Origin: an uncultured Candidatus Saccharibacteria bacterium
GTDB taxonomy: Bacteria; Patescibacteriota; Saccharimonadia; Saccharimonadales; JAGQNJ01
Assembly: GCA_964590205.1 (NCBI GenBank)
Contig: CAZPVO010000002.1
Span: forward strand, 65,005 to 129,004
DNA: 64,000 nucleotides
Reading direction: 5' to 3'
Below the pieces are notes generated by a model that was given only the letters and a program-made list of their open reading frames with translations, searched no databases and had not been told where the DNA came from. Positions 14,386 through 38,661 of this stretch are shown here, piece after piece; the first letter of the stretch is position 1; each line of letters starts with the position of its first letter. Position numbers and translations under genes: made by a program.

Positions 14386-14410
14386 AAAAAAATCCTGCTC
14401 GCGGGCAGGA
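14386..14410 (-). terminator. intrinsic terminator of the leader expression platform
   Basis: Minus-strand hairpin UCCUGC-CCGCGA-GCAGGA (14410..14393) followed by U7 (14392..14386). Confidence 0.55.
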
Positions 14411-20375: not shown

Positions 20376-22183
<1,808 letters not shown>

Positions 22184-22184
<1 letters not shown>

Positions 22185-22783
22185 TGACTGACAACAAATC
22201 CGACGTTAAGCAAACCAGTAGTCGCGCAGTTCATAAAACCAAGTTTGAGGGCATGCTAATTTTTGATCTGAATATTTTTGAAGATCCGCGAGGCAAATTT
22301 ACTGAAGTTTGGCAAACCGAAGCCATGGCTGAGTTGGGACTTCCCGAAGTAAATCCAAAACAACTCGGCATTGCTCATTCTAAAAAAGGCACAATCCGTG
22401 CTATTCACGCCGAACCTTATGACAAAATTGTGCACGTTGTGCGTGGCAAAGTTTTTTGTGCCATGACTGATCTTCGCAAAGATTCAAAAACATTTGGCGA
22501 AGTTGAAACTTTCGAGCTCGATTGCAACCAAATGCTGTTTATTCCAAAAGGTGTTGGCAACGGTGTGCAAGCCATTTCTGATGAAGACGTCGATTACGTG
22601 TACTGTGTGACTGGCCTTTGGAGTGCTGAAAAAGCTTACTCAGGTGGCTACCTGGCTATCAATTTTGCCGATCCAGATTTAAACATCCAGTGGCCAATTG
22701 GCGAAGACGGCTGGATTGTGTCACTCAAAGATCAGCAAAACCCAACCATGCGTGAATCGTTTCCGGAGAAATACAATGGATAG
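22184..22783 (+). CDS. rfbC: dTDP-4-dehydrorhamnose 3,5-epimerase
   Basis: Cupin-type RmlC-like sequence (FEDPRGKFTEVW...IRAIHAEPYDKIV). It lies between rfbB and rfbD. Confidence 0.85.
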
Positions 22784-23633
22784 TTCACGCTTTCTAATTA
22801 TTGGTGCGAACGGCCAACTTGGCACGGCGCTTAAAGCTCAATACCCAGATGCACAGGCCGCTGATGTCGATGAACTTGACATTACTAATAAAGAATCTGT
22901 TAACAATTACGACTGGTCCGTTGTTGACGTTATATTAAATGCCGCAGCCTTTACTAATGTTGATGGTGCTGAAACACCTGAAGGAAGAGTTGGTGCCTGG
23001 AAGGTTAATGCCGAAGCCGTCAAAAATCTTACCTATGCTGTTTGGAAACATCAGCTCAAGGCTATTGTTCATATTTCGACTGACTATGTATTTGACGGAA
23101 CTCAGCAACAGCACGATGAGAATGAGCCTTTTGCACCACTGAGTGTTTATGGTGCTAGTAAAGCGGCTGGCGATTTATTGGTTGCTCAAGTAGATAAACA
23201 CTATATCCTGCGAACCAGCTGGGTGATTGGCGAAGGCAAGAACTTTGTCCGCACTATGCTTGAGCTCGCCAACAAAGGCATTAACCCAACTGTTGTGTCC
23301 GACCAAGTTGGCCGCCTAACTTTTACATCTGAGCTTGTTCGCGCTATCGATCACCTGCTGAGCACTAACGCCGAATTTGGCACTTATAACGTCACAAACG
23401 GTGGCGATTCTGCCAGCTGGGCCGGCATTACACGTAAGATTTATGAATTTGCCCACCTTGGAAACTCTGTCACTGACACTACGACTGAAGAATATTACAA
23501 AGGCAAAGAAAATATTGCGCCGCGACCATTAAACAGCACACTTAAGTTAGATAAAATACAGGGAACTGGTTTTGAGCCCGTGAACTGGGAAGAAGATCTT
23601 AAAAAATATGTTGAAAAGGAGCTCGGTAAATGA
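22776..23633 (+). CDS. rfbD: dTDP-4-dehydrorhamnose reductase
   Basis: The start MDSSRFLIIGANGQLG (Rossmann motif) at 22776 overlaps the rfbC stop by 8 nt. STDYVFDG and YGASK motifs are present. The track ORF start 22698 is an over-extension. Confidence 0.85.
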   Translation: MDSSRFLIIGANGQLGTALKAQYPDAQAADVDELDITNKESVNNYDWSVVDVILNAAAFTNVDGAETPEGRVGAWKVNAEAVKNLTYAVWKHQLKAIVHISTDYVFDGTQQQHDENEPFAPLSVYGASKAAGDLLVAQVDKHYILRTSWVIGEGKNFVRTMLELANKGINPTVVSDQVGRLTFTSELVRAIDHLLSTNAEFGTYNVTNGGDSASWAGITRKIYEFAHLGNSVTDTTTEEYYKGKENIAPRPLNSTLKLDKIQGTGFEPVNWEEDLKKYVEKELGK

Positions 23634-24493
23634 AAGGCATTATTTTAGCTGGTGGATCTGGAACTCGTTTGTATCCAATTACGCTCGGCGTCAGTAAGCA
23701 ACTGATTCCACTGTATGACAAGCCGATGATTTATTATCCGCTCAGCGTTTTAATTAACGCGGGTATTAATGACATTCTAATTATTTCAACTCCGCAGGAT
23801 TTGCCACGTTTCGAACAACTCCTCAGTAGTGGTAAAGACATTGGCTGTGACTTTAGTTATAAAATTCAAGACAAGCCACGTGGTCTAGCAGATGCATTTG
23901 TGGTTGGTGCTGATTTTATTGGCGATGATAAGGTTTGCATGATTTTAGGTGATAACATTTTCTTTGGTTCCGATTTTGATGCCAAAGTTCGCGAAGCAGT
24001 CGATTGTGACGGTGGTGTGATTTTTGGCCAGCAGGTTGCTGATCCAGAACGTTACGGCATTGTCGAATTCGATAAAGACATGAAGGTTGTCTCTATTGAA
24101 GAAAAGCCCGAAAAACCAAAATCAAATTACGCTATTCCAGGGCTCTACTTTTTTGATAACAAGGTTGTTGAATACGCGAAGCACGTTAAGCCAAGTGCTC
24201 GTGGTGAAGTAGAAATTACTGAGCTGCATAACGCCTATTTGCGCGAAGGAAAACTCAAAGTTCAGCTGCTCGATCGTGGTACGGCCTGGCTCGACACTGG
24301 AACATTTGCCAGCATGAATCAAGCTGCTCAATTTGTACAAGTAATCGAAGAACGCCAAGGCATTAAAGTCGGTTGTATTGAAGAAGCCGCTTGGCGCCAA
24401 GGCTTTATTAACGATAAACAGCTAGAGGAACTCGGCAACAAATTCCTCAAAAGCGGCTACGGTAAATATTTGCTTGAACTGCTTAAGAGTTAA
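23630..24493 (+). CDS. rfbA: glucose-1-phosphate thymidylyltransferase
   Basis: MKGIILAGGSGTRLYPIT... is the RmlA signature. 287 aa. Confidence 0.9.
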   Translation: MKGIILAGGSGTRLYPITLGVSKQLIPLYDKPMIYYPLSVLINAGINDILIISTPQDLPRFEQLLSSGKDIGCDFSYKIQDKPRGLADAFVVGADFIGDDKVCMILGDNIFFGSDFDAKVREAVDCDGGVIFGQQVADPERYGIVEFDKDMKVVSIEEKPEKPKSNYAIPGLYFFDNKVVEYAKHVKPSARGEVEITELHNAYLREGKLKVQLLDRGTAWLDTGTFASMNQAAQFVQVIEERQGIKVGCIEEAAWRQGFINDKQLEELGNKFLKSGYGKYLLELLKS

Positions 24494-25018
24494 TTAAGCA
24501 GCAGTGGGTTCTGGGCTATGATAGGGTCGAACTTCGCATTGTTGACCTAAGCGTCGTTGCTCATAAGCAGTAGTTGCCACACCTTGCCCACGAAATTCTG
24601 GTTGTACCCATATATATGCATCGTCATACCAAACCGGATCAGCATAAGGTTCTAGTGGCTCCATGAGGTGTCTGGATACTATGACTCCTAATGATTTAGG
24701 CATTTCGCCACAGCCATTTCCATCTTGAATTATATGTAGGTTCCAGCCACTCTCTGACTGAACGTGCCGTGGAGTTCCAGTAAAGTATCTGCCCGGCAGT
24801 AGTTGAGCGACGCCAGCATTTTCTACTGCATTCCATATGCTGTCTGCAGCAAGCCTAAGCTCTTCGGGAACCTCTTCATCAGCGCTAAATGCTTCGACAA
24901 CTGTTCTAGTTCTTGATAACAATTCACCTTCCCATTTTCGCGCATAACTATTAGACCAATGCTTTGCATCAAACCCCACCGCCCTAGCTTCGGGAGTCCA
25001 TATTCTGTCAAATGCCAT
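24494..25018 (-). CDS. hypothetical protein with C-terminal GNAT-like motif
   Basis: 174 aa. IWVQPEFRGQGVATTAYEQ resembles GNAT motif A (V.PE.RG.G). The N-terminal half is unrecognised. Its stop abuts the rfbA stop with zero spacing. Confidence 0.4.
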   Translation of the reverse strand: MAFDRIWTPEARAVGFDAKHWSNSYARKWEGELLSRTRTVVEAFSADEEVPEELRLAADSIWNAVENAGVAQLLPGRYFTGTPRHVQSESGWNLHIIQDGNGCGEMPKSLGVIVSRHLMEPLEPYADPVWYDDAYIWVQPEFRGQGVATTAYEQRRLGQQCEVRPYHSPEPTAA

Positions 25019-25085
25019 GGTAATTCTCCTCTGTTACTAATTGGTATTATCTACCCAATTAGCAGATTTGCAAGCATGAACAGAA

Positions 25086-25538
25086 TTAAAGTAATCTTAG
25101 GTTGGTGAGTGAGATTATACTTGGGGGCGAAAGCTTATAATCTTTTAGTTTGTCCACTGGCACCCAAATTGGTTCAATAAAATCATCCTCGATGGTTAGT
25201 TTTACATCTTCGGCTTTTTGCTTTAGATGGACCTTATAATTGTAAAACGTCATTTTTACTAACACGTGTTCGCCTGTGTCACGCAGTTCTTTTTCGCTAT
25301 CGTTCTTAAACGCATCGCCGGGCATTTTTTCTATATTCTCATTTGTAATATCAATGCCTGTTTCCTCGAGTGTCTCACGGATCAATGCCTGAATATGTGT
25401 TTCACCTTCCTCTACCCCGCCACCTGGAATAATAAGCGTGCCTGGATACACACCGCCTTTGCGACTTTTGCCCATGAGTAACTTGTTGTCACTACTAAAA
25501 AGAAATGGTCCAACAATGTCTCGATAAATTGTGCGCAT
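25086..25538 (-). CDS. NUDIX hydrolase
   Basis: Nudix box GGGVEEGETHIQALIRETLEETGI. Confidence 0.8.
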   Translation of the reverse strand: MRTIYRDIVGPFLFSSDNKLLMGKSRKGGVYPGTLIIPGGGVEEGETHIQALIRETLEETGIDITNENIEKMPGDAFKNDSEKELRDTGEHVLVKMTFYNYKVHLKQKAEDVKLTIEDDFIEPIWVPVDKLKDYKLSPPSIISLTNLRLL

Positions 25539-25570
25539 ACTTATAAACTACTGTAAAACGTCCCAAATTG

Positions 25571-25867
25571 CTACGTAAGGAATCGCGTACTAATGAACCA
25601 GTTCTTGGTTGCAGTATCTACCTTAACGTGATGCTTTACTCTAAATCCTTGCTGACGCATGATTTCTACCACCCCATCATCAAGCTGAAAAAATTTAGCC
25701 TTTTGGCCTTCTCCAGGGAAGTGTCGAACATGATTATACTGAGACTCATCAAAAGTATGTGCCGATGTATTATCTGGTTTAACATTGAGTAATTCACTAC
25801 CAAAAATTACACTAAATTCAATTGGACCTGCCGGGAATTCACCAACTCCTTCAGAGTCTATACTCAT
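25571..25867 (-). CDS. hypothetical protein (98 aa)
   Basis: ORF in the same orientation as its neighbours. No recognisable motif. Confidence 0.4.
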   Translation of the reverse strand: MSIDSEGVGEFPAGPIEFSVIFGSELLNVKPDNTSAHTFDESQYNHVRHFPGEGQKAKFFQLDDGVVEIMRQQGFRVKHHVKVDTATKNWFISTRFLT

Positions 25868-25921
25868 AAGACTATTATAAAACCAAACGAGCAGTTTGTT
25901 GAATTTTACTGTGTTGAAAGT

Positions 25922-26518
25922 CTAGTTGAAGGTTGTTGGGATATTGTAAAGCTTAGTAGCATCTGGGTCTGGACCTTCGCTAGCTTGTACAACTACCCAT
26001 GTATCATTTACTTTTTTAAGTGTATATGGAGTGCTGGCGCTTTTGCTTCCGTTATTGCAGGTTGCGGTCAACTGTGCAAACGTTTTATCTGTAGAATACA
26101 TGACTACTTTTTTATCTGTTCCCATTGTGCCAGCTGTAAAAACAAGTGCCTTTTTGGTTGTTGGGTCAACGCTTGCTTCGCAGTATGCTTTTGCCGCAGC
26201 CAGAACAGCATCGTCAGTTGTCGTTGTTTTAGTGCTGCTCGATGATGAGCTTGATTTGCTTGCTGCAGCCTTTGCGTCGGCAACTTGCTTATTTAAATCA
26301 CTAACCTGTGAGTTTAACTGTTGTACTTGAGCGTTTGCAGATTTAACTTTCTGATTCTGCCAATAGTAAACTCCGTATGCTGCACCTGCTATCAAAACCA
26401 ATACCAACAAAACCTTTAAAACACCCTTGCCCTTGCCACCACTTTTTTGTGGAACTGGCGTTATTGGTGTTACTCCCGCGGATTGAGCGGCAGCTTGATT
26501 TTCTAATTCATCGTCCAT
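25922..26518 (-). CDS. membrane-anchored hypothetical protein (coiled-coil + Ser/Thr-rich linker + small globular domain)
   Basis: One TM helix (VLKVLLVLVLIAGAAYGVYYW), a Q-rich coiled segment, then the run SSSSSSSTKTTTT. Confidence 0.5.
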   Translation of the reverse strand: MDDELENQAAAQSAGVTPITPVPQKSGGKGKGVLKVLLVLVLIAGAAYGVYYWQNQKVKSANAQVQQLNSQVSDLNKQVADAKAAASKSSSSSSSTKTTTTDDAVLAAAKAYCEASVDPTTKKALVFTAGTMGTDKKVVMYSTDKTFAQLTATCNNGSKSASTPYTLKKVNDTWVVVQASEGPDPDATKLYNIPTTFN

Positions 26519-26762
26519 GTAAGGATCCTCTTATATTTTAAGTGCTTATGCTTACAGTTTATCATGCGAACTGTCATTTTTTTACAACAATCATTCTTGC
26601 ATGTTTTTCTCTTGGCAAGGTCTTCCCTGATTGTAGCCTAGCTTACACATTACCTTCTTAAAAATCAAAATATTGTTGATTAAAACAGTGGTAAATTAAA
26701 CACTTGCTCGTTCGAATTTTTGCATTACAATTGCGGCCATGAAAAAGTCAGTGCGCACATAT

Positions 26763-26770
26763 TGTATAAT
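26763..26770 (+). promoter_or_regulatory. extended -10 promoter element (TGTATAAT)
   Basis: TGTATAAT lies 14 nt upstream of ATG 26784, with AAGGAGGG in between. This implies a very short leader. Confidence 0.3.
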
Positions 26771-26783
26771 GTAAGGAGGGTAA

Positions 26784-27545
26784 ATGAAAAAAAGATTATC
26801 AGAAATAGGTTTCTCGGTATTTTACTTGCTGGCAGCACTAGTTGTGATTGCTGTTATAGGCATTGTTGCATGGAAAGTATTTGCCAAGAAGCCTGGCACA
26901 ATGGAAAGCTCCTCTAACTCACAGACAACTCAGAATACTCAGCAAGTCCCAAAACAAGAGTTAGCAACATATAAGAACGATAAAGCTCGGATTACTTTTC
27001 AGTACCCAACAACTTGGAAAAGTGAATCTCAAGACTTAGTTAATCCTAATGATGGATCCTATGATGGCACAAAGGGGTCAATAACATCCCCTAGTGGCAA
27101 CAAACTGGTTTGGAATTATGTATTTGTCGGTGGAGGTGGCGGACAATGTGAGCCCCTTCCAAGCGACCAGCCGTTCCACCCGGGTAACGACTGTCCATCA
27201 AAACAAATTATTTCAGTTGAAAAGGTACAAACTATTAAGAATCCATCCAACGCACCCGGAGATATATTCCAAGACAGTATGTTCATCACGAAAACCAAAT
27301 ACCTTTCCAATGCATCAGGTGAAAAAGAATCATTCCAAATTTGCTTAGACCCATACTTTACATCAACAACTAACGGTCATACCGATATGACCCCAACCCC
27401 AGAGACTGTTATGGGATTTCTTGCTCCTTGCGAATTCTTTAAGATTGGCTTTGGTGCAAACTTTAGTGTAAATAGCGAAGCGGATTTTAATTCCCCCGAT
27501 GCTAAAACTGCCGAACAAATAATGAAAACTTTCAATTCCTATTAA
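26784..27545 (+). CDS. membrane-anchored/secreted hypothetical protein
   Basis: Strong SD (AAGGAGGG), an N-terminal hydrophobic helix and a Q/T/S-rich linker. The FQYPTTWK segment is common in secreted proteins of small-genome bacteria. Confidence 0.5.
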   Translation: MKKRLSEIGFSVFYLLAALVVIAVIGIVAWKVFAKKPGTMESSSNSQTTQNTQQVPKQELATYKNDKARITFQYPTTWKSESQDLVNPNDGSYDGTKGSITSPSGNKLVWNYVFVGGGGGQCEPLPSDQPFHPGNDCPSKQIISVEKVQTIKNPSNAPGDIFQDSMFITKTKYLSNASGEKESFQICLDPYFTSTTNGHTDMTPTPETVMGFLAPCEFFKIGFGANFSVNSEADFNSPDAKTAEQIMKTFNSY

Positions 27546-27594
27546 GCAATAAGATTCTAGAAGAATACTAATAACATCGTTCAGGAGGATTATT

Positions 27595-29328
27595 ATGGAT
27601 CGTTCGCATTCTATAGAAGTACCCCAAGATCTTGACATGAATCAAGAAATTAACAATATTGACCCCTACCAAACTCGATCAGTTTTCAAACAAATAAGAA
27701 GGGTGGGCACACGTGCACTAGTAGCACTTGGTATGACTTTTACTTCAGTAGTTGGCTCGCAAGCTACTGAAGTAGCAAACCACGCTCAAATTGCAGAAGC
27801 AATGACAAATGATTACCCTAGTCCTTTGATGCCATGTGTGGCACAAGGCCCAAACTACGGCAAGACAACGGGCACTGGCTACTGGTGTGATGGATACCAG
27901 TGGGGTGATCTAAAGACTGGTAATCAAAACTCATCCCGTGGTTTTGGATACAGAAACTGTACTGACTGGGCGGCATTTCGCGCTCAAGAATTAACAGGAG
28001 TATTAGTACCTTACGGTGCAAAAATGGGGGATGCTGGTATGTGGGATAATAATGCCCCTACGTATGGCTATACTGTAACCTCTGTGCCAGAAGCAGGTGA
28101 TCTTGCAGTTTGGGATGGTACTAGAACTAACCCATATGGACATGTTGCTGTCGTTGAGTCTGTTAATCCTGACGGGACAGCTAATATTTCCGAATATAAC
28201 CATGGTATGGATGGAAACTATGGGACCAGAACGAGTATAGTTGCCAATCACTATATAGATCTTAATGGTCCAAATAAGCCTGCCCAAACAGTTCCAGCTG
28301 TTGAAGGGCCAACTTTCATGCCATCAATGGTTCAACGACCTTCTGGTGAAACCGTTACTGTCGATGTTGGCCCAAACAATAGCTTAGACTATTACTTTAA
28401 TGCACTTGGTTCTGGAGTGTGGGGGAAATTAGCAACCGGTGGACAAGCCTTTTCTTCGCCAGCTATGATTCAACGTTCAAATGGAGAAACGGATATTATT
28501 ACGCAGGGGCCCAATCATAGTTTGGATTATTACTTCAACAGCCAGGGTTCCAGTACATGGGGTAAACTCGCAATCGCAGGAGCAAATGCTGCTTTTTCCG
28601 CACCAGCAGTTGTACAACGTTCAAATGGAGAAACTGATGTTGCAGTTGTGGGCCCGAACAACAGTCTGGATTTTTACATTAATTCGCTTGGCTCACCAAA
28701 CTGGGGCAAGTTAACTGTTCCCGGTGCCCAGGCTTTCTCAAAACCAGCTATGGTGCAAAGATCATCTGGCGAAACAGATATAGCCACCCTTGGGCCAGAC
28801 AATACTTTGAATTTTTACTATAACCCTGCCGGAACAACCAGCTGGGGAGTTAGTCACGTCGCAGCCAATGGCTGGGCATGGAGTGCACCATCAATGATCC
28901 AACGCCCAACTTCAGGAGAAACAGACATTGCTGTTCAAGGCCCAAACAATAGTCTCGATTTTTACATGAATACCCAGGGTTCACCATATTGGGGGAGATT
29001 GCCAGTTGCAGCCAGTGGTTCGACTTTTGCCACACCAAATCCACCGTCAATGACACAAAGGCTCAATGGTGAAACGGATATTGTTGCTCGTGGGCCAAAC
29101 GACACAGCCAACTTTTTCTTTAACACATTTGGTACTTCAAACTGGAACAAAGTTCCGGTTGCCACCCCCGGTTTTAGTTTTAGACAGCCAGCAATGATTC
29201 AAAGGCCAAACAATGAAACAGATCTAGCTGTCGTTGGACCAAATAACCGACTAGATTTTTATTTTAACCAGTATGGCTCGCCGTATTGGGCAAACTTCCC
29301 GATCGCAGGCAACAATACTGCGTCCTGA
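27595..29328 (+). CDS. secreted CHAP-domain peptidoglycan hydrolase fused to seven tandem ~47-aa propeller-like repeats
   Basis: SD AGGAGGA. CHAP catalytic pair context: RNCTDWAAFRA (Cys) and YGHVAVVESV (His). Seven repeats of (P/A)xM(V/I)QRxxGETD(I/V)xxxGPNNSLDFYxNxxGSxxWG follow. Confidence 0.75.
   Translation: MDRSHSIEVPQDLDMNQEINNIDPYQTRSVFKQIRRVGTRALVALGMTFTSVVGSQATEVANHAQIAEAMTNDYPSPLMPCVAQGPNYGKTTGTGYWCDGYQWGDLKTGNQNSSRGFGYRNCTDWAAFRAQELTGVLVPYGAKMGDAGMWDNNAPTYGYTVTSVPEAGDLAVWDGTRTNPYGHVAVVESVNPDGTANISEYNHGMDGNYGTRTSIVANHYIDLNGPNKPAQTVPAVEGPTFMPSMVQRPSGETVTVDVGPNNSLDYYFNALGSGVWGKLATGGQAFSSPAMIQRSNGETDIITQGPNHSLDYYFNSQGSSTWGKLAIAGANAAFSAPAVVQRSNGETDVAVVGPNNSLDFYINSLGSPNWGKLTVPGAQAFSKPAMVQRSSGETDIATLGPDNTLNFYYNPAGTTSWGVSHVAANGWAWSAPSMIQRPTSGETDIAVQGPNNSLDFYMNTQGSPYWGRLPVAASGSTFATPNPPSMTQRLNGETDIVARGPNDTANFFFNTFGTSNWNKVPVATPGFSFRQPAMIQRPNNETDLAVVGPNNRLDFYFNQYGSPYWANFPIAGNNTAS
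28315..29325 (+). repeat. seven tandem coding repeats (46-52 codons each) inside the CHAP protein
   Basis: The QR..GET cores start at residues 245, 291, 339, 386, 434, 486 and 534 of the 577-aa product. The repeats are diverged at DNA level. Confidence 0.7.
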
Positions 29329-29329
29329 T

Positions 29330-30208
29330 TTATCGAGGGTTGTTCTTTACAAAATCTTTGATGTAACCCAGCACGTCGACAGTCGTGTCCCAGCCAAGTT
29401 CAGTGCGCGCTTTGTCCGAAAGTTCTTCCTTAGCAGTTCCTGAACGTCCTGAATACCGTTCGGTTAGTACTGTTTTGCCACCAAAGGCTTTAGCAATTTG
29501 GAGCACCGAAAACTGTTTTTTGTTATTGAGTGAATAGCCATCGCCCTGCCCTTTTTCACCGACCAAAATGATGCCACGAGCTAAATCACCAACGTATGTA
29601 AAATTCCTTTTTTGAGTTCCTGGTGGGTCAATCGTTAACGGCCGCCCATGTAAATAATCTTGCTGAAATTTAGCAATTAAAGTCATGTACTTACCAGTGC
29701 CCTTTTCGCGTGGACCAAAAGCATTGTAGAAATAGCAAATGGCGTAGGGCAAGTCGTACCATTTACCGTAGTTGTTAACTAGGTCCACGTTCATGGCTTT
29801 GGTAAACGAGTATGGGTTTTGATGCCGACCGTTGCCTTCAATAGCAAATTTGGTGCTTGAGCCTGCATAAACAAGCTTCCCCACTTTGCGCTGGCGGCAA
29901 AACTCTAAAACAGCGAATGTGCCAGTAATGTTCAGATCAAAAACCTTTTCGACATCCTCAAACGACGGTGCAATTCGAGCATACTCACCAAGGTGAAAAA
30001 CAATCTCTGGCTTTTCGGGCACAAGTTTAGCAATATTTTTAGTATGCCCACGTCGATACTCGGCACCCTTAATATGGTTTTTGGCACTGCCATTAAAATA
30101 GTTGTCGAGCGAAATGACTTTGTTATTTTTGTCTTTCACTAATTGCTCAATTATGTGTGAGCCAACATGTCCAGCACCCCCAGTAACAAGGATGATTCTT
30201 TTAGCCAC
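29330..30208 (-). CDS. NAD-dependent epimerase/dehydratase (SDR; possibly acting on UDP-glucuronate)
   Basis: VTGGAGHVGSH Rossmann motif and YSFTK (YxxxK). 8-nt overlap with the upstream ugd. Confidence 0.7.
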   Translation of the reverse strand: MAKRIILVTGGAGHVGSHIIEQLVKDKNNKVISLDNYFNGSAKNHIKGAEYRRGHTKNIAKLVPEKPEIVFHLGEYARIAPSFEDVEKVFDLNITGTFAVLEFCRQRKVGKLVYAGSSTKFAIEGNGRHQNPYSFTKAMNVDLVNNYGKWYDLPYAICYFYNAFGPREKGTGKYMTLIAKFQQDYLHGRPLTIDPPGTQKRNFTYVGDLARGIILVGEKGQGDGYSLNNKKQFSVLQIAKAFGGKTVLTERYSGRSGTAKEELSDKARTELGWDTTVDVLGYIKDFVKNNPR

Positions 30209-31520
30209 GAACTACTTCCCGACCAATACTTTCGTAGTGGAAACCCTCGGATTTAACTCGTTCTAAATCGTACAAATTGCGTCCATCAAAAATAACTGGC
30301 TTTTTAAGTCCTTTTTTCATTTTAGCGAACGATGGCTCAGTAAACTCCGGCCATTCGGTTGCAATGATTAATGCATCGGCACCTTTGAGTGCGTCGTAAG
30401 AACTCTTCACAAAACTGAGCTTCTTGTTTTTGCCGTAGAATTTCTTTACGTTATCCATAGCTTCGGGATCAAAAGCTACAACGCTAGCACCTTCTTGGGT
30501 TAGCGTTTTGATGATCTCAACGCTTGGTGCTTCACGAATGTCGTCTGTATCTGGTTTAAAAGCCAAACCCCACAACGCAAATTTTTTGCCTTCTACGTTG
30601 CCTTTGTAGTAATTAAGAACTTTTTGAGCCATACGATGTTTTTGCTGATCATTAACTTCCGTCACGGCCTCGAGAATTTTAAAGTCGTAATCGTTAGCCA
30701 TAGCAGTGCGGTGTAGTGCCAGAACGTCTTTAGGAAAACAGCTGCCGCCATAGCCGATACCAGGAAACAAAAAACGTTTACCAATTCGATCATCAGAACC
30801 GATACCGAGCCGAACTGCATCAACGTCTGCACCAACTTTTTCGCATAAGTTTGCAATCTCGTTCATAAACGAAATTTTAGTTGCTAAAAACGAGTTGGCT
30901 GCATATTTTGTCATCTCTGCGGATTTCTCATCCATGAAAAAAATTGGGTTGCCTTCTTTTACAAATGGTTCGTAGAGTTTATTTAAAACTTTCTTGGCTT
31001 TCTCGGAACTCGTGCCAATTACCACACGGTCTGGTTTCATAAAGTCGGCAACCGCAAAACCTTCGCGCAAAAATTCCGGATTTGAAACAACATCGTATTT
31101 TACTTTGGCATTTTTGCCAATGTGCTTGCTCACTCGGTCGGCTGTGCCAACTGGCACGGTACTTTTATCGATCACAATGGCGTAGTGATCCAAAGTTTTT
31201 CCAAGGTCATCTGCCACGCCTAATATATAAGACAAGTCCGCGCTGCCATCTTCCCCTGGCGGCGTTGGTAGTGCGAGAAAAATTACCTCAGCTTCTTTGA
31301 TGCCAGCTTTAAGATCAGTCGTAAAATGCAAACGATCTTCTTTAATATTGCGCTTAAATAGTTTCTCTAAATCAGGTTCGTAAATCGGTACTTGACCGGC
31401 TTTCATTTTCTTAACCTTGGCTTTGTCGATATCAACACACGTGACATCGTTGCCCATTTCGGCAAAGCATGTGCCTGTTACAAGTCCAACGTATCCGGTT
31501 CCAACAACTCCAACTTTCAC
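30201..31520 (-). CDS. ugd: UDP-glucose 6-dehydrogenase
   Basis: MKVGVVGTGYVGLV N-terminus and the catalytic GGSCFPKD motif. 439 aa. Confidence 0.9.
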   Translation of the reverse strand: MKVGVVGTGYVGLVTGTCFAEMGNDVTCVDIDKAKVKKMKAGQVPIYEPDLEKLFKRNIKEDRLHFTTDLKAGIKEAEVIFLALPTPPGEDGSADLSYILGVADDLGKTLDHYAIVIDKSTVPVGTADRVSKHIGKNAKVKYDVVSNPEFLREGFAVADFMKPDRVVIGTSSEKAKKVLNKLYEPFVKEGNPIFFMDEKSAEMTKYAANSFLATKISFMNEIANLCEKVGADVDAVRLGIGSDDRIGKRFLFPGIGYGGSCFPKDVLALHRTAMANDYDFKILEAVTEVNDQQKHRMAQKVLNYYKGNVEGKKFALWGLAFKPDTDDIREAPSVEIIKTLTQEGASVVAFDPEAMDNVKKFYGKNKKLSFVKSSYDALKGADALIIATEWPEFTEPSFAKMKKGLKKPVIFDGRNLYDLERVKSEGFHYESIGREVVRG

Positions 31521-31553
31521 CTATCCCCTCGCTTTCCTCTAAAGTTCCAGTTA

Positions 31554-32990
31554 CTACTTTTTTTGTAATCCTGTCTTAGTAATGACCGAGCTTTCCTGAT
31601 ATTCGTAGTCAGTATTAATTTCCCAAAGATCGTGATGTGTGCCGTCAGCTACATTCTCAGCAGCCAGAATTCCCATCAAAATACTGTGATCTTGGTTATT
31701 GTATTTGAATGCACCATAGCGACCGATAACCTGCAGGTTTTTGAAACTACGCACGTAATCTTCAACTGCCTTCAGTGGTTTTTTGTAACCACGTCGATAA
31801 ACTGGATAGCACTTTGGCACGCGAATCACTTTACCCTCTTTGACTTGATCTGCTTTTACCAGACCAGTCTTCACGATTTCTTCTTTTGCCAGCTTAATGT
31901 ACTGCTTATCGTCCCAACTCCAAAAATCGTCTTCATCAAAGCACCAATATTCCATGGCCAGAATACTTTCCTTCTTGCCTTTATTGATTTCTTTAACCCA
32001 GTTTCTAAAGTTAGTAATTCGTCCGGTTCGAAGTTCCGAGCTGTGCACGTAAATCCAGTTGTCCGGAAAAATTTTGCGAGCATTAACTTTTAGATACACG
32101 ATTAGCGTGTTGCGAAACTTAAGATTCTTGGTAGCCTTAGCAACTTTGTCCGGTACATGCTTCATGCGACTCACAAGTAAGGTTAGTGGCATTGATGAAA
32201 TCACTTGATCGTATTCAATTTCTTTGCCATTCACAAGTTTTACGCCATACACAGTCTTACCACGAACCAACATTGAATCAATAGGTGTTTGAAGATGTAC
32301 TTTGCCGCCATTTTTCTCGATGGACTTTTTCATTAGCTCATAAACCTGGCCAGTGCCTTGTTTTGGAAAAGCAAATTGATCAACAAGGGTTTTGTGCTTT
32401 TCGCCACCGCCACCAAATACTGCACTTTTTACCGCTTCCCAGAGTGACAACTTTTTAATACGCTGTGCAGCAAAGTCAGCATCAAGTTCAGTACACGGAA
32501 TTCCCCATAATTTTTCTGAATAAGTTTTGAAAAAGTGTCGATACAAACGCCTACCAAAACGAGCCGTCACCCAACTCTCAAAACTATTTCCCAAATCGCG
32601 GCCACCTGGCTTAATTCGCTGCCAGCCATAACTCGCCATACAAAGAAACGCTTCAAAAAGTCCAAGGTTCTTGAGTGCATCGCCAGCTTTAATTGGATAG
32701 TGATAGAATTTATTCTTAAAGAAAATTCGGGTCAGACGATCAACCATTTCGTAATCTTTACCAATAACCTCAAGCCATAATTCATTCACGCGAGTATCAC
32801 TACTAAAAAATCGATGTGGACCAATATCAACGATCTGTCCCCACAATTTCCATGAACGCGCCATGCCACCTACGAATGGTGACGCCTCATAAAGATCAAC
32901 TGGCACACCTTTTTTTGCCAATTCATACGCTGCCGTAATTCCAGCAGGCCCCGCACCAATTACTGCGATCTTTTGTTTTTTATTCGCCAC
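31554..32990 (-). CDS. FAD/NAD(P)-binding oxidoreductase (amine-oxidase / UDP-galactopyranose-mutase-like fold)
   Basis: IAVIGAGPAGITAAYELAKKG...LYEASPFVGGMA dinucleotide-binding motif. 478 aa. GTG start. Confidence 0.7.
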   Translation of the reverse strand: MANKKQKIAVIGAGPAGITAAYELAKKGVPVDLYEASPFVGGMARSWKLWGQIVDIGPHRFFSSDTRVNELWLEVIGKDYEMVDRLTRIFFKNKFYHYPIKAGDALKNLGLFEAFLCMASYGWQRIKPGGRDLGNSFESWVTARFGRRLYRHFFKTYSEKLWGIPCTELDADFAAQRIKKLSLWEAVKSAVFGGGGEKHKTLVDQFAFPKQGTGQVYELMKKSIEKNGGKVHLQTPIDSMLVRGKTVYGVKLVNGKEIEYDQVISSMPLTLLVSRMKHVPDKVAKATKNLKFRNTLIVYLKVNARKIFPDNWIYVHSSELRTGRITNFRNWVKEINKGKKESILAMEYWCFDEDDFWSWDDKQYIKLAKEEIVKTGLVKADQVKEGKVIRVPKCYPVYRRGYKKPLKAVEDYVRSFKNLQVIGRYGAFKYNNQDHSILMGILAAENVADGTHHDLWEINTDYEYQESSVITKTGLQKK

Positions 32991-33025
32991 TATTCCTCCT
33001 TAACCCCACCGATCTTTCACTTAGA

Positions 33026-33538
33026 TTAATACAAAATTTTCTTTCTTCCTATAAAATTCCAGAAAAAGACAACAATCGTAGAAACAATCTTAGCAATTCG
33101 GTAGTCAACATGCATCCACTGAACCATGCCAGCAATAATTGCCAGGTTTAGCGCAAGTCCAATTGCGCAGATAATAAAAAAGATCGTAAATTCAGCTTTT
33201 TTTGAAGCAAGTTGGCGATCGGCAAACACCCACCAAACACTCAATGCGTAATTAACTAGCACGCCAAGCGTAAAACTAATAGTGGCAGCCACCAAATAAT
33301 TAATACCGAGCTTTTCTTTCATGATGACAAGTGTGCCAAAATCGACGACCAACGCAACAACCGAAACAACCAAGCTTCGAATAAGCTGCACCATCGTATT
33401 GTGGCTCGGCTTTAGCTTGACGATTTCAATAACTAAATCTTTGATCGCCAGTATCGGATTGTCATCACCCGGCAGGGGCACTTCCTCGACATCATGAACT
33501 TTATTCATGTATTTTCCTAAGACTCCTTTGCCAATCAA
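33026..33538 (-). CDS. GtrA-family membrane protein (second copy)
   Basis: Four helices, with WWVFADR and FFWNFIGRKKILY GtrA-like motifs. Confidence 0.7.
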   Translation of the reverse strand: MIGKGVLGKYMNKVHDVEEVPLPGDDNPILAIKDLVIEIVKLKPSHNTMVQLIRSLVVSVVALVVDFGTLVIMKEKLGINYLVAATISFTLGVLVNYALSVWWVFADRQLASKKAEFTIFFIICAIGLALNLAIIAGMVQWMHVDYRIAKIVSTIVVFFWNFIGRKKILY

Positions 33539-33558
33539 TTATACCTTAACTCGCATGC

Positions 33559-34914
33559 TTAGTGGAACCATGTAAAGATGACGCTGACGCTAGCGAACAG
33601 CACAATGATTGCCAGCGCAACATTTGTTCGCCATTTGATGGTATGTCGATAACGACCAATCAAAGCTGGCATTAGCAATATGAGTGTTGGAATTAAGTAG
33701 CGAGCTTGTAATTGCTCAACAAATGATTGATGCGGATTAGACCAAAAAATGTAGAGACCTGCAAAAATAAAAGCAACATTCGTAAGCGCCACCAACCAAA
33801 AGATAATTGTAGGTTTGTTGGCGGTACGCTCTTTTTTATCCTGATATCCAAAACTCAGAAACAGTGCGATGATTGCAACTGCCAAAGCCCATGGTTGCAA
33901 AGCAATATCGCCAACACCAAACTCTCCAAAAAATCCGGCGAGCAAACCTGGTTGACGCAATGTTGAGAGAGAAGCTTTTATAAAGCCAAAAGGATGAGTC
34001 AGCATAAATTTTTCCTGCACTTTTGGATCGGCGAACACACCAACCGAATGCTGTAGAGCCGTTGGCTGAGTATGCACATGCCGAAGTGATACAAGTGTTA
34101 GTGCAAAAGGAATTAATGCCGCTGCGATTACACCCAGTGCCGTTACAAATTCTTTTTTGCTGAACTTAACGTTTCTAAACGGCAATGCCAACAGTGCAAA
34201 AATCAGGACAAAATACGTTTGCTTCGAAAGCGCCACAGCCGCTGCCAAACAGCCAACAATAATCCATTGCTTTGTGTCGATATTTTTTTGCCTAAACAAA
34301 CTATATAAATAAGACACAAACAGCGCAGTTGATCCTAACACAAACGTGTCGGCTGAAAGAGACGCGCCTAAATACAACACCATCGGCAACAGCCCAATTA
34401 CAAATAATGCCTCCTTGTTTTTGCCGATTATTTTTAGAGCAAAGTATAAGCAAAGCCCTAAAAACACCAGATTAAAAATGCGTGCCGCAAAAAATTGAAC
34501 CCAAATGCTCTGCGTAAAAATTCTGGCTAAGCCCAAACCAAGTGCTTGTGGCAGATAATTTACAAATGGGTAAATCGCTACATTCGTAAATGGTATTGAA
34601 TCCTGATTATTTGGATTTAACCTTTGGCTCAGTTGCGCCTTCATGGACGAAAAGTAGTGATACTTTTGTCCTGGAGTTAAAATGTTTTCGCTCACAAAGT
34701 TCGTTAAGCTTTTTGGAACATTACCGCCCGCTTCATCACCAATATTGTCAGGCACGAGTTTAAACGTTGAAACTTGGTAGGCTCTATATAAATGAGTGCT
34801 CTCGTCGTGCGTGTAAATTGGCGGTGTAACAAAAACAAAAAGCAAACCAAAGACAAAAAATATCGTAATAAATACGTTTTCCTTGGGCTTTAAAAAATTT
34901 CGAATTTTGTCCAT
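33559..34914 (-). CDS. polytopic membrane protein, GT-C-like glycosyltransferase candidate (DUF2142-like)
   Basis: About 450 aa with at least 10 TM helices. An extracytoplasmic loop after TM1 carries an acidic motif (YTHDESTHLYRAY). ATG 34914 (MDKIRNF, GGGGA SD) is preferred over TTG 34941. Confidence 0.5.
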   Translation of the reverse strand: MDKIRNFLKPKENVFITIFFVFGLLFVFVTPPIYTHDESTHLYRAYQVSTFKLVPDNIGDEAGGNVPKSLTNFVSENILTPGQKYHYFSSMKAQLSQRLNPNNQDSIPFTNVAIYPFVNYLPQALGLGLARIFTQSIWVQFFAARIFNLVFLGLCLYFALKIIGKNKEALFVIGLLPMVLYLGASLSADTFVLGSTALFVSYLYSLFRQKNIDTKQWIIVGCLAAAVALSKQTYFVLIFALLALPFRNVKFSKKEFVTALGVIAAALIPFALTLVSLRHVHTQPTALQHSVGVFADPKVQEKFMLTHPFGFIKASLSTLRQPGLLAGFFGEFGVGDIALQPWALAVAIIALFLSFGYQDKKERTANKPTIIFWLVALTNVAFIFAGLYIFWSNPHQSFVEQLQARYLIPTLILLMPALIGRYRHTIKWRTNVALAIIVLFASVSVIFTWFH

Positions 34915-35015
34915 AAATCCCCGGCTCTTGGTCACTATCAATATACTTGTTTTACAACATAAAAACTACATCTGATATTACAAACTAGTGCTAGAATAGA
35001 TTGACTAGGAGTACG

Positions 35016-36626
35016 ATGCGAAAGCCAAAGGGTAAGAGCGCAACGACAAAACTGCGCCAACGACTTTCCAAGACAAATTATTGGGTTCTTGCTATTCTTA
35101 CCGCAGCAATTTTGGTGCTGGTTCTTAATATTTATGTCGCCCAAACCAAACGAGCTTTCACCAGCGATGACGTCGTCACACAAGTTATGGTTCACGACCA
35201 TATTGCCACTGGCGGCAAGGGCACGCTATGGTTCGGCGAAGACAATTTTGTTATAAAAATTCCTTTTTATCAGCTTGGTGATTTACTAATTGCAAACTCA
35301 CGAAAGGTCATTATTGCCACAGTTGTTTTGCTCGACGTCGCTGGTTTTATTCTGTTCTTTTATGCCGCGCTTTATTTCTTGAAACGTTTCAAAGTTAGTG
35401 GCAAAATTTCGCTGCTAATACTCGTCTGGTTAGCGACGATTTACAATCTGGTCTTTTACTGCCTCATGAATCCGAATCTTCGTAATGTTGAAATTGGAAT
35501 AAGTTTTGTGGTTCTCATGTTGTTTGCAAAATATCTTGATGGCGATTTTGTATTTAAAACCCGCTGGCAAAAGTTTTTGCTTGTTGTGCTGGCAGGGCTA
35601 CTTGGAATGTTTTTCTACAGTGATCCGTTTTATATGTATATGCTCGCTGGACCGCTTATTCTGTTTTTGTTAGCACAAATAATTTGGCTCAGGTTTAATC
35701 AGCGCATCGGACGAGCATTAGTATTTGTGTTTGCGTCGCTCATCAGCTCATTTGTATGGCTCAAGTTTTTCAAAATTTTCTTTCATTTTTCATTGAAACA
35801 TTCGGAAACTTCGTTTGCCGCTTTTAATAGTCTTGGAACAACTATTCCGCAGTATATTTTTGATTACTTCCATTTGCTGACAGCTGATTTTTGGGGCCGA
35901 CAAGTGTTTTCGCCAGTTGGCGTTCAAACTTCGCTTAATGCACTGCTCCTTATTTGTACGACCGGCATGATAATTTACATGCTTGTTCGCAGAGTTAGTA
36001 AAAAGACCGATCCCTGGCTGACATTTTTCTTAGCTATGCCGATTTATATTGGCGCAATATTTATTTTTAGTCAGAACACCGTGCTCAGCGGATATGGGTC
36101 GGTCCGTTTCTTAGTCATGTCACCGTTTTACATTGTATTTGCCATGGCAATATTTTTTGCCGAGCTTAAAAACATAATGCTTAAACGTTTGCTGACGCTC
36201 GTTCTTTGCTTGAGCATTATTTTAAACGTTGGTTGGCTGTTGGTTTCGGTTGTTAGGCATCCTGCCGCTAATCCAAATGCTGCGAATTTTGCCATTGTTG
36301 ATGCAATTAAACAAAATCATTTTGATAAAGGCTACGCTCACTATTGGGATGGAAACATTAATGAGTATTTGAGCAATTACTCAACTAAAATTGTGCGAGT
36401 TGAATGTTTCACTAAAATTGATTGGCTCATGGATCAAGGCAATGAGTCAGTACACGCCGACAAAACGTTCTATATATATGACAAACAATATTCAGCAAAG
36501 TGCAGTCCGGATGATATTAATGAAAAACTTGGCGAGCCATCCAAAACGATTCCAATCAATGATCAGATTACGATTTTCACTTATGATTACGATATTGGAG
36601 CTAAGTTTAACGAGATGAAACTCTAA
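35016..36626 (+). CDS. polytopic membrane protein, GT-C-like glycosyltransferase candidate
   Basis: About 11 TM helices followed by a ~130-aa C-terminal soluble domain. ATG 35016 has an AGGAG SD and is preferred over TTG 35001. Confidence 0.5.
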   Translation: MRKPKGKSATTKLRQRLSKTNYWVLAILTAAILVLVLNIYVAQTKRAFTSDDVVTQVMVHDHIATGGKGTLWFGEDNFVIKIPFYQLGDLLIANSRKVIIATVVLLDVAGFILFFYAALYFLKRFKVSGKISLLILVWLATIYNLVFYCLMNPNLRNVEIGISFVVLMLFAKYLDGDFVFKTRWQKFLLVVLAGLLGMFFYSDPFYMYMLAGPLILFLLAQIIWLRFNQRIGRALVFVFASLISSFVWLKFFKIFFHFSLKHSETSFAAFNSLGTTIPQYIFDYFHLLTADFWGRQVFSPVGVQTSLNALLLICTTGMIIYMLVRRVSKKTDPWLTFFLAMPIYIGAIFIFSQNTVLSGYGSVRFLVMSPFYIVFAMAIFFAELKNIMLKRLLTLVLCLSIILNVGWLLVSVVRHPAANPNAANFAIVDAIKQNHFDKGYAHYWDGNINEYLSNYSTKIVRVECFTKIDWLMDQGNESVHADKTFYIYDKQYSAKCSPDDINEKLGEPSKTIPINDQITIFTYDYDIGAKFNEMKL

Positions 36627-36672
36627 TGATCACGAGGCTAAGCTGCTATACTAACGATCAGGAAAACCGCGC

Positions 36673-38577
36673 GTGAAGCAACTAAAACAATTATTTACCA
36701 GTCCGTATTTCTATATTTTTATGATTACGTATTATGGTGTGTGGTTAATGTGGGATTCATTGCGCCTACCGTATCGCGGCCCTGCTGGTGTTATAAGTTA
36801 TTTGCCGTCAATTCACTTTAATCCAACGAATAATTTACTCCGGTTTTTAGTCGCTGTGTTAATGCCACCGATCGCATGTTTAATTTTTTGGCTGCTGACG
36901 GGAAGTGCTTGGCGTGGCAAATTAACTTCTAGAAAAATTCGTATTGTTGTTGCTGCACTACTAGTGATAAGCGCAGTTGCTTTGGCTTGTTTTATGGGCA
37001 TTGTTCAGGGAAGCACCGATTCCAAGAACCAGCCGCAAACTTATGGTGGTCCGTATAACTATGCCCTGCTCGATACATTTCACGAAGGTGAAACCTTAGG
37101 CCCAGCAGTTTCTTATCAGCAAAAAGACCTCAAGCCTTATCGTGATTTTGTGATTATTCACGGAGTATTCCAAGATCCTCTCCGTACTGTCATTGCTTTT
37201 AAATTATTTGGGCAAAGCATTGGTGCCGCGCGAGCATTTGGTGTAATGCTGCTCATGTTTACATTCATTTTGTACTACGCGTTACTGCTTGTTTTGTTTG
37301 AAGGCAATGTTTATAAATCATCGGCTGGTATGGCGGCCTTGGCGTTGTTACTTTTCCCATCACTGACAATTCCATTTATTGGCAAATCGCTGATTGGTGT
37401 GGCATTTCCGTTTCGAGATATTCCAACAATTCTGTTTTTGATGGCAGCAGTTGCCGGCTTGAGAGCAATTCTAAAAACTAAAAAGTGGTCGCAAATTATT
37501 TATAGTGGTTTGATTGGTTTTATTGTTGCAGCTGGCTTTGCGAACTCGATCGACCGCGCCATGTATATTGCAGTACTCTCAGTTGTTTGGCTCATCATGG
37601 TTGGACTGGTTCGTTACAAAGGATTTTGGAAACAAACATTCCTGCCGTATGTTTTTGGTGGCTTGGTTGGCGTTCCCGTGCTGGGAATGGCACTTAAGTG
37701 GGACTTTATTGATCTTGCAAAGTACCTGCTTAGCATGTCGCGTTACAAAGAGTACCTCGATGGTGTTCCATTTGTACGACCCGACTCAGGGGTAAGTTTG
37801 ATTCTTTTAGCCGTTTCATTCGGTGTTTTAGTGGTTGGCTGGTACATTTTGAAGACGCTCACTTCACCTGCCATGAAGCGCGGCAACTTTAAACACAAAG
37901 TTAAAACTGCGAGTGAACTTTTAGGAAAACTTGTTGAGCAGTACTATGTCGTGATTTTACTGTTTGTAACATCAGTATTTTTCCTAAGAAGTGCGATCGG
38001 TCGTGCCGATATAGGTCATTTAGTATATAGCATTCAGTGGCTGTATTTGCTTATCGCTTTTTTGGTTATTAATTACCTGTCTGCGTCCCGTAAAAAGAAT
38101 TCAATTGCCTTGGCTCTTATAAGTGTTATCTTGCTTGGTTCAACTCTTTTGTATTACGCTGGTCAAACGTATAAAATCAATCTTTCAAAAGATACTTTCC
38201 CAATCCACGCAAGCGACACAAACTTTATTCGTCCGGATTACAAACAAACTGCTGATTACCTAAAGCAAAACCTCAAGCCAAGCGAATCATTTATGACACT
38301 AACTTCTGAAGGTTCATACTATTACTTTGTTGATAAACCTTCACCAACCCGGTGGTATGTTTTGTGGTATGCCTACACTCACCCACAGCGCCAGGAAATT
38401 GCCGACAAGTTAGCAAATGATCAAAACATTAAGTACATTGTGACGAATGATAATTGGACCAGCAATTTCGATTACGTGCCAAATCCTGCTCGATTCCCAG
38501 AAGTTTATAGTGTACTTACAGATAAATACGAACCACAGACTGGCTTTGGTCAGCAAACCGTTTGGGTTCGTAAATAA
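36673..38577 (+). CDS. large polytopic membrane protein, GT-C-like candidate
   Basis: 634 aa, GTG start, at least 12 TM helices and a ~130-aa C-terminal soluble domain. No named family recognised. Confidence 0.5.
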   Translation: MKQLKQLFTSPYFYIFMITYYGVWLMWDSLRLPYRGPAGVISYLPSIHFNPTNNLLRFLVAVLMPPIACLIFWLLTGSAWRGKLTSRKIRIVVAALLVISAVALACFMGIVQGSTDSKNQPQTYGGPYNYALLDTFHEGETLGPAVSYQQKDLKPYRDFVIIHGVFQDPLRTVIAFKLFGQSIGAARAFGVMLLMFTFILYYALLLVLFEGNVYKSSAGMAALALLLFPSLTIPFIGKSLIGVAFPFRDIPTILFLMAAVAGLRAILKTKKWSQIIYSGLIGFIVAAGFANSIDRAMYIAVLSVVWLIMVGLVRYKGFWKQTFLPYVFGGLVGVPVLGMALKWDFIDLAKYLLSMSRYKEYLDGVPFVRPDSGVSLILLAVSFGVLVVGWYILKTLTSPAMKRGNFKHKVKTASELLGKLVEQYYVVILLFVTSVFFLRSAIGRADIGHLVYSIQWLYLLIAFLVINYLSASRKKNSIALALISVILLGSTLLYYAGQTYKINLSKDTFPIHASDTNFIRPDYKQTADYLKQNLKPSESFMTLTSEGSYYYFVDKPSPTRWYVLWYAYTHPQRQEIADKLANDQNIKYIVTNDNWTSNFDYVPNPARFPEVYSVLTDKYEPQTGFGQQTVWVRK

Positions 38578-38661
38578 GAGTCGCAAGCGAACAGTAGTGC
38601 GGCTGTTGATTTTTTGATACTTTTTATGGTAAAGTACATCTGTTAGTACAAAAATAAAACT

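Follow-up and report, generated by a model that had tools for sequence, protein, structure and literature searches.

The 64,000-nucleotide window analysed here, part of contig CAZPVO010000002.1 (assembly GCA_964590205.1) of an uncultured Candidatus Saccharibacteria bacterium, encodes a 577-residue protein in which a CHAP (peptidase C51) domain is joined to seven tandem repeats that are predicted to close into a β-propeller of the Photorhabdus PLL/PHL lectin type. We refer to it as the CHAP-PLL protein. Each domain is a member of a known family, and databases already label the fusion, by automatic annotation, as a 'surface antigen'; what is new is a divergent PLL subfamily serving as a module of a hydrolase, a combination that has not been studied. 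The interpretation that we prefer, with a confidence just short of even, is that the protein is an exported and probably membrane-tethered peptidoglycan hydrolase, directed by its propeller and acting on the producer's own rhamnose-containing wall polysaccharide. The coordinates of the gene, its domains and its main neighbours are collected in Table 1.

The open reading frame (ORF) is complete and was confirmed from the sequence as the preliminary description had given it. That description had also counted exactly seven repeats of 46–52 residues, and the count holds: consecutive units of 46, 48, 47, 48, 52, 48 and 47 residues fill residues 242–577, and the protein contains no eighth unit. In pairs the units are 38–64% identical (mean 51%), and an out-of-register alignment of the region with itself lies far beyond chance (E 3e-56). 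No tandem repeat was found at the DNA level in the repeat-coding region, and the array is therefore ancient.

In a structure predicted by AlphaFold2 (AF2) from 51 homologues, the repeat region folds into 28 strands arranged as seven sets of four, with predicted local distance difference test (pLDDT) values of 92–97. A Foldseek comparison with the PDB returned PLL, PLL2–5 or PHL for all of the top 22 matches (E ~1e-16 to 3e-18, target-normalised template modelling (TM) score 0.79–0.88, root-mean-square deviation (rmsd) 2.4–4.2 Å), with BP39L and CV39L next. The alignments to PLL-family lectins span 346–366 columns, and hence the whole ring, at an identity of 16–21%. A phmmer search of PDB sequences retrieved PLL2 (6rfz, E 7.2e-10) and PLL3 (6t96, E 2.1e-6) along the repeat region, and the Pfam family Beta-prop_PLL (PF26607) is precomputed on an identical database protein (P0001) and on most homologues. 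In the model, the C-terminal ~340 residues close into a seven-bladed propeller, which is a homologue of the Photorhabdus PLL/PHL lectins. The propeller suggested in the preliminary description is thus borne out by the AF2 model and the Foldseek matches, and its statement that the repeats are none of SH3b, LysM, CW_binding, SLH or choline-binding also stands. Its view of them as an unfamiliar type does not, since they match PLL2 and PF26607 and so belong to a well-described family.

A Pfam scan with a set lacking PF26607 gave only noise in the repeat region (RnlA_toxin_N, Beta-prop_ACSF4 and Choline_bind_3), and the DUF346 repeat (PF03984) had no match in the protein at E values up to 10. RnlA_toxin_N (PF19417) was rejected: it scores 30.7 bits against a threshold of 24, but over a 25-residue piece only (28483–28557, residues 297–321, in blade 2). 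The same piece recurs at the same place in 8 of 88 relatives and looks like a systematic false positive of PF19417 on PLL-type blades.

In the classification of lectins, the PLL family is PropLec7A, with galactose (Gal), glucose (Glc), L-rhamnose (L-Rha) and L-fucose (L-Fuc) as reported ligands (PMC11186620). Its members bind L-Fuc, L-Rha, Gal and O-methylated sugars at sites between the blades (PMC12203525; PMC5584973; PMC11186620); one of the Foldseek matches, 6rgr, is PHL with L-rhamnose. The blades of the CHAP-PLL protein align in register with PLL2 on the scaffold P...G...G.(D/N)N.L......W..G..(S), and carry a subfamily signature of their own, QR..GETD..GPNNSLDFY.N..W. Conservation was counted in 14 orthologues, whose seven repeats each give 98 blades. 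The consensus drawn in the preliminary description proved accurate, its conserved residues being nearly invariant over these blades (P 98, Q 94, R 98, G 96, E 98, T 91, W 97 and N 95). The Gln-Arg pair, specific to the subfamily, terminates strand A.

To map the sugar sites, the blade-by-blade alignment with PLL2 was read against the published site residues of PHL (PMC5584973; PMC12203525), so that all correspondences are those of an alignment. The hydrophobic (fucose-type) site of PHL consists of Thr194, Trp199 and Trp214, and its polar (galactose-type) site of Arg186, Glu188, Trp202, Gln251 and Trp259 (PMC5584973). At the hydrophobic site, the Thr of the B–C turn corresponds to Pro and the first Trp to Asp or Asn in all seven blades, while the second Trp is represented by Leu, Leu, Leu, Ser, Leu, Val and Phe in blades 1–7. 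At the polar site, Arg has become Glu (98 of 98 blades), Glu has become Asp or Asn (95 of 98), the stacking Trp has become Phe, Tyr, Ile or Met, and Gln has become Asn (95 of 98); the Trp of the C–D loop is kept in 97 of the 98 blades. Because the five polar-site positions are nearly invariant, four of them with changed residues, the ring of polar-type sites is the likely binding surface, and this ring of inter-blade sites may have been retained with an altered chemistry. The fucose-site residues being absent, sugar binding is argued from membership of the family together with the conservation of the polar-site positions. As the site residues of the PLLs are changed, the ligand specificity of those lectins is not transferable to this propeller.

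The CHAP domain matches PF05257 over profile positions 4–81 of 81, at 69.5 bits (cut-off 26; E 3.5e-19), and its pLDDT in the AF2 model is about 85–94. With phmmer, the PDB yields CHAP/C51 chains such as 2k3a, 2lrj, 5t1q and 4cgk (E 1.5e-8 to 1e-5), whose Cys, His and Glu/Asn positions line up with those of the protein. The preliminary description had placed the Cys in NCTDW and the His in GHVAVV; both lie inside the Pfam match and are invariant in the orthologues, and the Cys122/His183 centre is intact. Asn202 (in SEYN) is conserved in at least 90% of the 14 orthologues, and the third polar catalytic residue is probably either this residue or Glu200. Partial NCBIfam matches on the CHAP part point to PcsB, ScrM and the PRK08581 amidases (E 3e-10 to 3e-5). 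Orthology to these proteins was rejected, at 22–39 bits against equivalog cut-offs of 400–839; since the whole-protein scores fall so far below the cut-offs, the protein is an orthologue of no named CHAP equivalog. Sequence does not tell amidase-type from endopeptidase-type CHAP domains.

Ahead of the CHAP domain lies a hydrophobic segment with a Kyte–Doolittle mean of 1.2–1.65, which is kept in 13 of the 14 orthologues (1.2–2.0). AF2 predicts a helix at residues 26–53, and an AxA motif (AEA, residues 67–69) stands C-terminal of the segment. Inspection of the sequence revealed neither a lipobox nor an LPXTG motif. Residues 37–55 probably act either as a Sec signal or as an anchor of the N-terminus in the membrane.

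Table 1. Coordinates of the CHAP-PLL gene, its parts and related features (window positions unless a locus is named)
Feature	Position	Strand	Remark
Complete ORF, CHAP-PLL gene	27595..29328	+	577 aa + stop; putative anchor/signal, CHAP, seven-bladed PLL-type propeller
Shine-Dalgarno AGGAGGA	27583..27589	+	5 nt before ATG; strong; read from sequence
Hydrophobic segment, aa 37-55 (VGTRALVALGMTFTSVVGS)	27703..27759	+	after KQIRR; Kyte-Doolittle mean 1.2-1.65
CHAP (peptidase C51) domain, aa 115-202	27937..28200	+	Pfam PF05257
Codon of catalytic Cys122 (NCTDW)	27958..27960	+	invariant in 14 orthologues; aligns with Cys of solved C51/CHAP chains
Codon of catalytic His183 (GHVAVV)	28141..28143	+	invariant in 14 orthologues; aligns with 'YGHVAFVE...SEHN' of 9eum
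Interdomain linker, aa 216-241	28240..28317	+	pLDDT < 50 at aa 231-237; length varies among orthologues
Propeller blade 1, aa 242-287	28318..28455	+	
Propeller blade 2, aa 288-335	28456..28599	+	
Propeller blade 3, aa 336-382	28600..28740	+	
Propeller blade 4, aa 383-430	28741..28884	+	
Propeller blade 5, aa 431-482	28885..29040	+	longest D-A loop
Propeller blade 6, aa 483-530	29041..29184	+	
Propeller blade 7, aa 531-577	29185..29325	+	conserved C-terminus ...GNN(S/T)AS
rmlB, rmlC, rmlD, rmlA	21165-24493		rhamnose genes before CHAP-PLL
PsbP_2-like membrane-anchored protein, 253 aa	26784..27545	+	PsbP_2 28.3 bits, marginal; own Shine-Dalgarno; pilin-like N-terminus; 49-nt gap to CHAP-PLL
Second CHAP protein, 968 aa	56952-59858	-	GDSL lipase/esterase, GH3 (NagZ-like beta-N-acetylhexosaminidase), phage-tail lysozyme, CHAP
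Pilin-like small protein in related loci	L082:7323-7931; L084:7239-7877; L085:7417-7980; L086:7220-7840; L087:7353-7964; L088:7419-7964		upstream of CHAP gene

Propellers of this kind are attached to many different partners. A phmmer search of 1.84 billion representative sequences with the propeller yielded 693 proteins at E ≤ 1e-3, 341 at 1e-10 and 87 at 1e-30. The QR..GE(T) signature is present in only ~20 of the 59 best-scoring relatives that were counted (clusters at 50% identity). The sole relative with a QR..GE propeller from a named organism is P0026 of Amycolatopsis sp. NPDC004747, a 664-residue protein that is 53% identical over the propeller; its C–D-loop Trp is replaced by Phe in the blades seen, and its N-terminal ~340 residues carry no Pfam domain. 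Among the 88 nearest propeller relatives, CHAP is the commonest partner (14), followed by FG-GAP_3 (13), and further partners include TIR, GH43, arabinofuranosidase and kinase domains and C1, C2 or M23 peptidases. Homologues with precomputed Pfam annotation add single fusions to M23, to a C39-like peptidase and to an Rv2525c-like domain. The partnership of a wall hydrolase with a PLL-type propeller is a recurrent one. Viewed from the catalytic side, CHAP domains that are 45–52% identical to that of the CHAP-PLL protein are followed by FG-GAP propellers or by C-terminal regions without assignment, and an RCC1 propeller occurs with a CHAP domain of lower similarity (42% identity over 20% of the query).

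A scan of the GTDB species representatives (185,579 genomes, 596 Gb) with motifs drawn from the alignment of orthologues gave 21 pattern matches, none of which was confirmed; with ~35 chance matches estimated, these representatives hold no family member with the scanned motifs. A CHAP-only homologue search of low sensitivity (118 candidates, 6 matches) found no orthologue in cultured Saccharibacteria, and the nearest named CHAP domain that it returned is from Friedmanniella. In the literature searched, we found no paper on a CHAP-PLL protein or on CHAP domains in Saccharibacteria, and none that mentions PF26607.

The gene stands within a locus for glycan biosynthesis. Between rmlA, the last of the four rhamnose genes, and CHAP-PLL lie four non-glycan genes, which encode a hypothetical protein, a NUDIX protein, a membrane protein and the PsbP_2-like membrane protein; beyond CHAP-PLL, in convergent orientation, follow genes for an epimerase, UDP-glucose dehydrogenase (UGDH), an FAD-oxidase, GtrA and a DUF2142 protein. 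The preliminary description had spoken of an accessory block interrupting the glycan locus. The non-glycan stretch is real (24494–29328, CHAP-PLL included); a recent insertion is not, since in two other genomes (loci L084 and L085) orthologues that are 52–57% identical are found at this very point, with rmlA on one side and the FAD-oxidase/GtrA genes on the other. Because of this shared position, CHAP-PLL is a stable resident of the locus.

Residence has not meant conservation. Between L085 and the window, RmlA, RmlB, UGDH and the FAD-oxidase are 86–92% identical, whereas the propeller is 62%, RmlC 37%, RmlD 69%, GtrA 68%, and a 634-residue and a DUF5648 protein 49–53% identical. The epimerase that adjoins CHAP-PLL retains 24%. 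The catalytic domain of the L085 protein is a different CHAP subtype that aligns around the His only (31% over 45 residues). Compared with L085 and L084, the glycan locus (21165–40595) is a mosaic, which suggests that single glycan genes have been recombined or replaced. CHAP-PLL is thus a stable but fast-evolving gene, a hot spot of divergence and module exchange.

Immediately upstream, the gene for the PsbP_2-like protein may be an operon partner of CHAP-PLL. No terminator-like site occurs on the plus strand between the two genes, and a homologue of this protein is encoded in the neighbourhood of L088 (6594–7349; 38% identity, E 4e-61). All six related loci encode a protein of 181–212 residues on the strand of the CHAP gene and 20–160 nt upstream of it, irrespective of the C-terminal module fused to CHAP. 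The N-terminus of this small protein is prepilin-like (K/R-G-F-S/T, with Glu5 in some cases), and its conserved core reads 'DPSEGGKYLVIkEWGVRfpLP'. The window is without this small family and has the PsbP_2-like protein directly upstream instead. A 198-residue protein encoded nearby (25922–26518, minus strand) combines a single transmembrane helix with a Q/N-rich stretch resembling a coiled coil and a linker rich in Ser and Thr; its weak match to the PHROG 'Rz-like spanin' (E 6.6e-5) is probably compositional.

In the mechanism that we propose, the CHAP-PLL protein would be exported, or held at the membrane, by its N-terminal segment, and its CHAP domain would cut the peptide part of peptidoglycan, at either an amidase bond or a cross-bridge bond. 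The propeller, binding carbohydrate at several sites at once, would attach the enzyme to a repetitive glycopolymer of the cell wall, much as choline-binding, SH3b or CWB2 modules may do for other autolysins. A targeting or binding role beside the hydrolase, which the preliminary description had put forward, is the natural reading of this architecture. As the target we favour the rhamnose-containing wall polysaccharide presumably made by the surrounding locus; the enzyme would then serve self-wall remodelling or cell separation, and its targeting module would co-vary with the glycan. The producer's own wall is preferred because the synteny recurs in three genomes, the gene co-diverges with glycan genes in L085, its N-terminus resembles an anchor and the window encodes a separate four-domain hydrolase. 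This hydrolase, a 968-residue protein, could cover any host-directed role, and we liken it to the lysozyme and peptidase genes beside virB4 that have been reported as essential (PMC12102498).

Several observations weigh against this interpretation. The canonical PLL site for fucose and other 6-deoxyhexoses (two Trp and one Thr) is replaced in all seven blades, and a structural network of inter-blade salt bridges, instead of a binding site, could be what the invariant Arg and Glu make up. Synteny with the glycan locus holds in three of the five PLL-type loci examined and is absent in L082 and L088. Finally, rapid divergence and domain swapping would fit an arms race in host interaction equally well.

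This last point leads to the strongest alternative, which we consider unlikely but deserving of serious attention: a host-directed lysin or adhesin, whose propeller would read a glycan, for example a rhamnose-rich or O-methylated polysaccharide, in the wall of an actinobacterial host while the CHAP domain opens host peptidoglycan at the site of attachment or feeding. The source organism is a Saccharibacterium, and the cultured members of this group live as obligate epibionts on Actinomycetota; the binding of TM7x to its host is inhibited by rhamnose and other sugars, and a TM7x minor pilin with a PLL-like heptabladed propeller contributes to that binding (PMC11623550). PLL2, moreover, binds the O-methylated sugars of mycobacterial phenolic glycolipid 1 (PGL-1; PDB 6rgg), and both the Amycolatopsis relative of the propeller and the Friedmanniella relative of the CHAP domain come from the host phylum. 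The gene evolves much faster than its flanks, a close relative has exchanged its CHAP subtype, and CHAP orthologues are found with FG-GAP or RCC1 propellers; on the same rather doubtful footing, the swapping of propeller types (PLL, FG-GAP and RCC1) and CHAP subtypes between close relatives would be the genetic basis of host range. Against all this, the gene lies among the producer's own genes for wall glycan in three genomes, its anchor-like N-terminus would keep the enzyme at the producer membrane, and a dedicated multi-domain hydrolase is encoded elsewhere in the window.

That the propeller is not a lectin at all is improbable. It would then be a platform for protein interaction or regulation, or a rigid spacer, with the Gln-Arg and Glu-Thr-Asp residues forming a structural network like the WD40 tetrad. 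The loss of the canonical fucose-site residues from every blade is consistent with such a role, as is the invariance of Arg and Glu in 98 of 98 blades, which is typical of structural networks. Related propellers are fused to kinases and TIR domains, which makes a sensor or interaction role plausible, and the small pilin-like protein upstream of CHAP-propeller genes in six loci could be a binding partner. However, all characterised members of the fold family are lectins, the conserved positions coincide with those of the PLL polar site, and the fusion partners also include GH43, arabinofuranosidase and wall peptidases, which suggests carbohydrate targeting.

Still less probable is a bacteriolysin aimed at competitors, including rival Saccharibacteria on the same host, whose glycan the propeller would read. 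Its diversification and module swapping do resemble the evolution of polymorphic toxins and bacteriocins, and the gene family is rare and patchy; yet no immunity-like gene is consistently adjacent, the pilin-like upstream partner is missing from the window, toxin-delivery domains are absent, and the gene holds a stable position inside a biosynthetic glycan locus. A phage endolysin or prophage remnant is barely credible and was rejected: CHAP domains are common in endolysins, and the CHAP part alone has weak endolysin matches in PHROGs (E 9e-8 to 5e-4), but tblastn found nothing like the propeller in 50,697 phage records, a viral fold library offered only generic propellers (rmsd 3.8–28 Å, target-normalised TM ≤ 0.70), no phage genes flank the gene, whose neighbours serve glycan biosynthesis, and the N-terminal export segment and conserved chromosomal synteny speak against such an origin.

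Elsewhere in the window, the 968-residue hydrolase is directly preceded by a 1067-residue ORF (59855–63058, minus strand; 4-nt overlap), suspected to be VirB4-like but with no match in Pfam, NCBIfam or the PDB. Together, the two may correspond to the wall-degrading module associated with the type IV secretion system (T4SS) that has been described for Patescibacteria (PMC12102498); there, the lysozyme and peptidase genes beside virB4 are reported to be essential for epibiotic growth (PMC12102498). A B12 riboswitch of the AdoCbl-II class (14440–14518, minus strand; 43.6 bits against a gathering threshold of 36.5) lies in the 5′ leader of a 514-residue ORF (12871–14415, minus strand) that has no Pfam or NCBIfam match and appears to be an uncharacterised B12-regulated gene in a reduced genome. 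The presence of dnaA (51601–52974, plus strand) places the region near the chromosomal replication origin. The DnaA encoded there is 88% identical to the one of an uncultured Candidatus Saccharibacteria chromosome, and its 80 best genome matches are nearly all metagenome-assembled genomes of Saccharibacteria, Saccharimonadales or Patescibacteria.

How ultrasmall epibiotic Patescibacteria recognise, open or remodel walls is largely unknown, and the CHAP-PLL protein offers a concrete candidate. Studies of TM7x suggest that polysaccharides containing rhamnose in the host wall are recognised in a lectin-like manner, with no lectin–ligand pair identified as yet (PMC11623550); should the protein be a host-recognition lysin after all, it would supply the pair still missing in the field (PMC11623550). 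If it is a plain self-wall autolysin, as we prefer to think, it would be the first propeller-type wall-binding module that we have found, and of modest general importance. In either case, the PLL family, whose study has until now been confined to the free lectins of Photorhabdus, would be extended to a targeting module of enzymes, and the altered chemistry of its binding sites may interest lectin engineers.

The closest known counterparts of the propeller are Photorhabdus PLL, PLL2–5 and PHL (PropLec7A; PF26607/IPR007132), with which it shares seven tandem W-motif repeats of ~47 residues and a closed seven-bladed ring. Those lectins, from an insect pathogen, stand alone and are cytosolic or secreted, whereas this propeller forms the C-terminal part of a saccharibacterial enzyme. 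With the CHAP hydrolases of Gram-positive bacteria (PcsB, 'secretory antigens' of the SsaA/ScrM type and staphylococcal amidases; C51), the protein shares the CHAP fold and the Cys–His centre, and probably an extracytoplasmic location; those enzymes carry coiled-coil, LysM, SH3b or GW modules, whereas this one carries a propeller. Modular autolysins and endolysins offer a further parallel. LytA possesses choline-binding repeats, PlyC binds a rhamnose-containing polysaccharide through PlyCB, and the CWB2 proteins of Clostridioides difficile bind polysaccharide II (PSII) and are encoded beside the polymer locus. The CHAP-PLL protein would follow the same logic, in which a catalytic domain is combined with multivalent repeats for a wall polymer and the gene is linked to the polymer locus, although the binding folds of LytA, PlyC and CWB2 are entirely different from its seven-bladed propeller, for which a lectin role is proposed here. 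Within Saccharibacteria, the nearest likeness is PilX2, a minor pilin of Nanosynbacter lyticus TM7x and likewise a surface protein with a C-terminal heptabladed propeller (PMC11623550). PilX2 structurally resembles PLL-type fucose lectins and has been implicated in host binding (PMC11623550). Its propeller, however, is built of RCC1 repeats on a pilin stalk with no enzyme domain, while the CHAP-PLL protein dispenses with a pilin N-terminus and joins true PLL-family repeats to a CHAP hydrolase.

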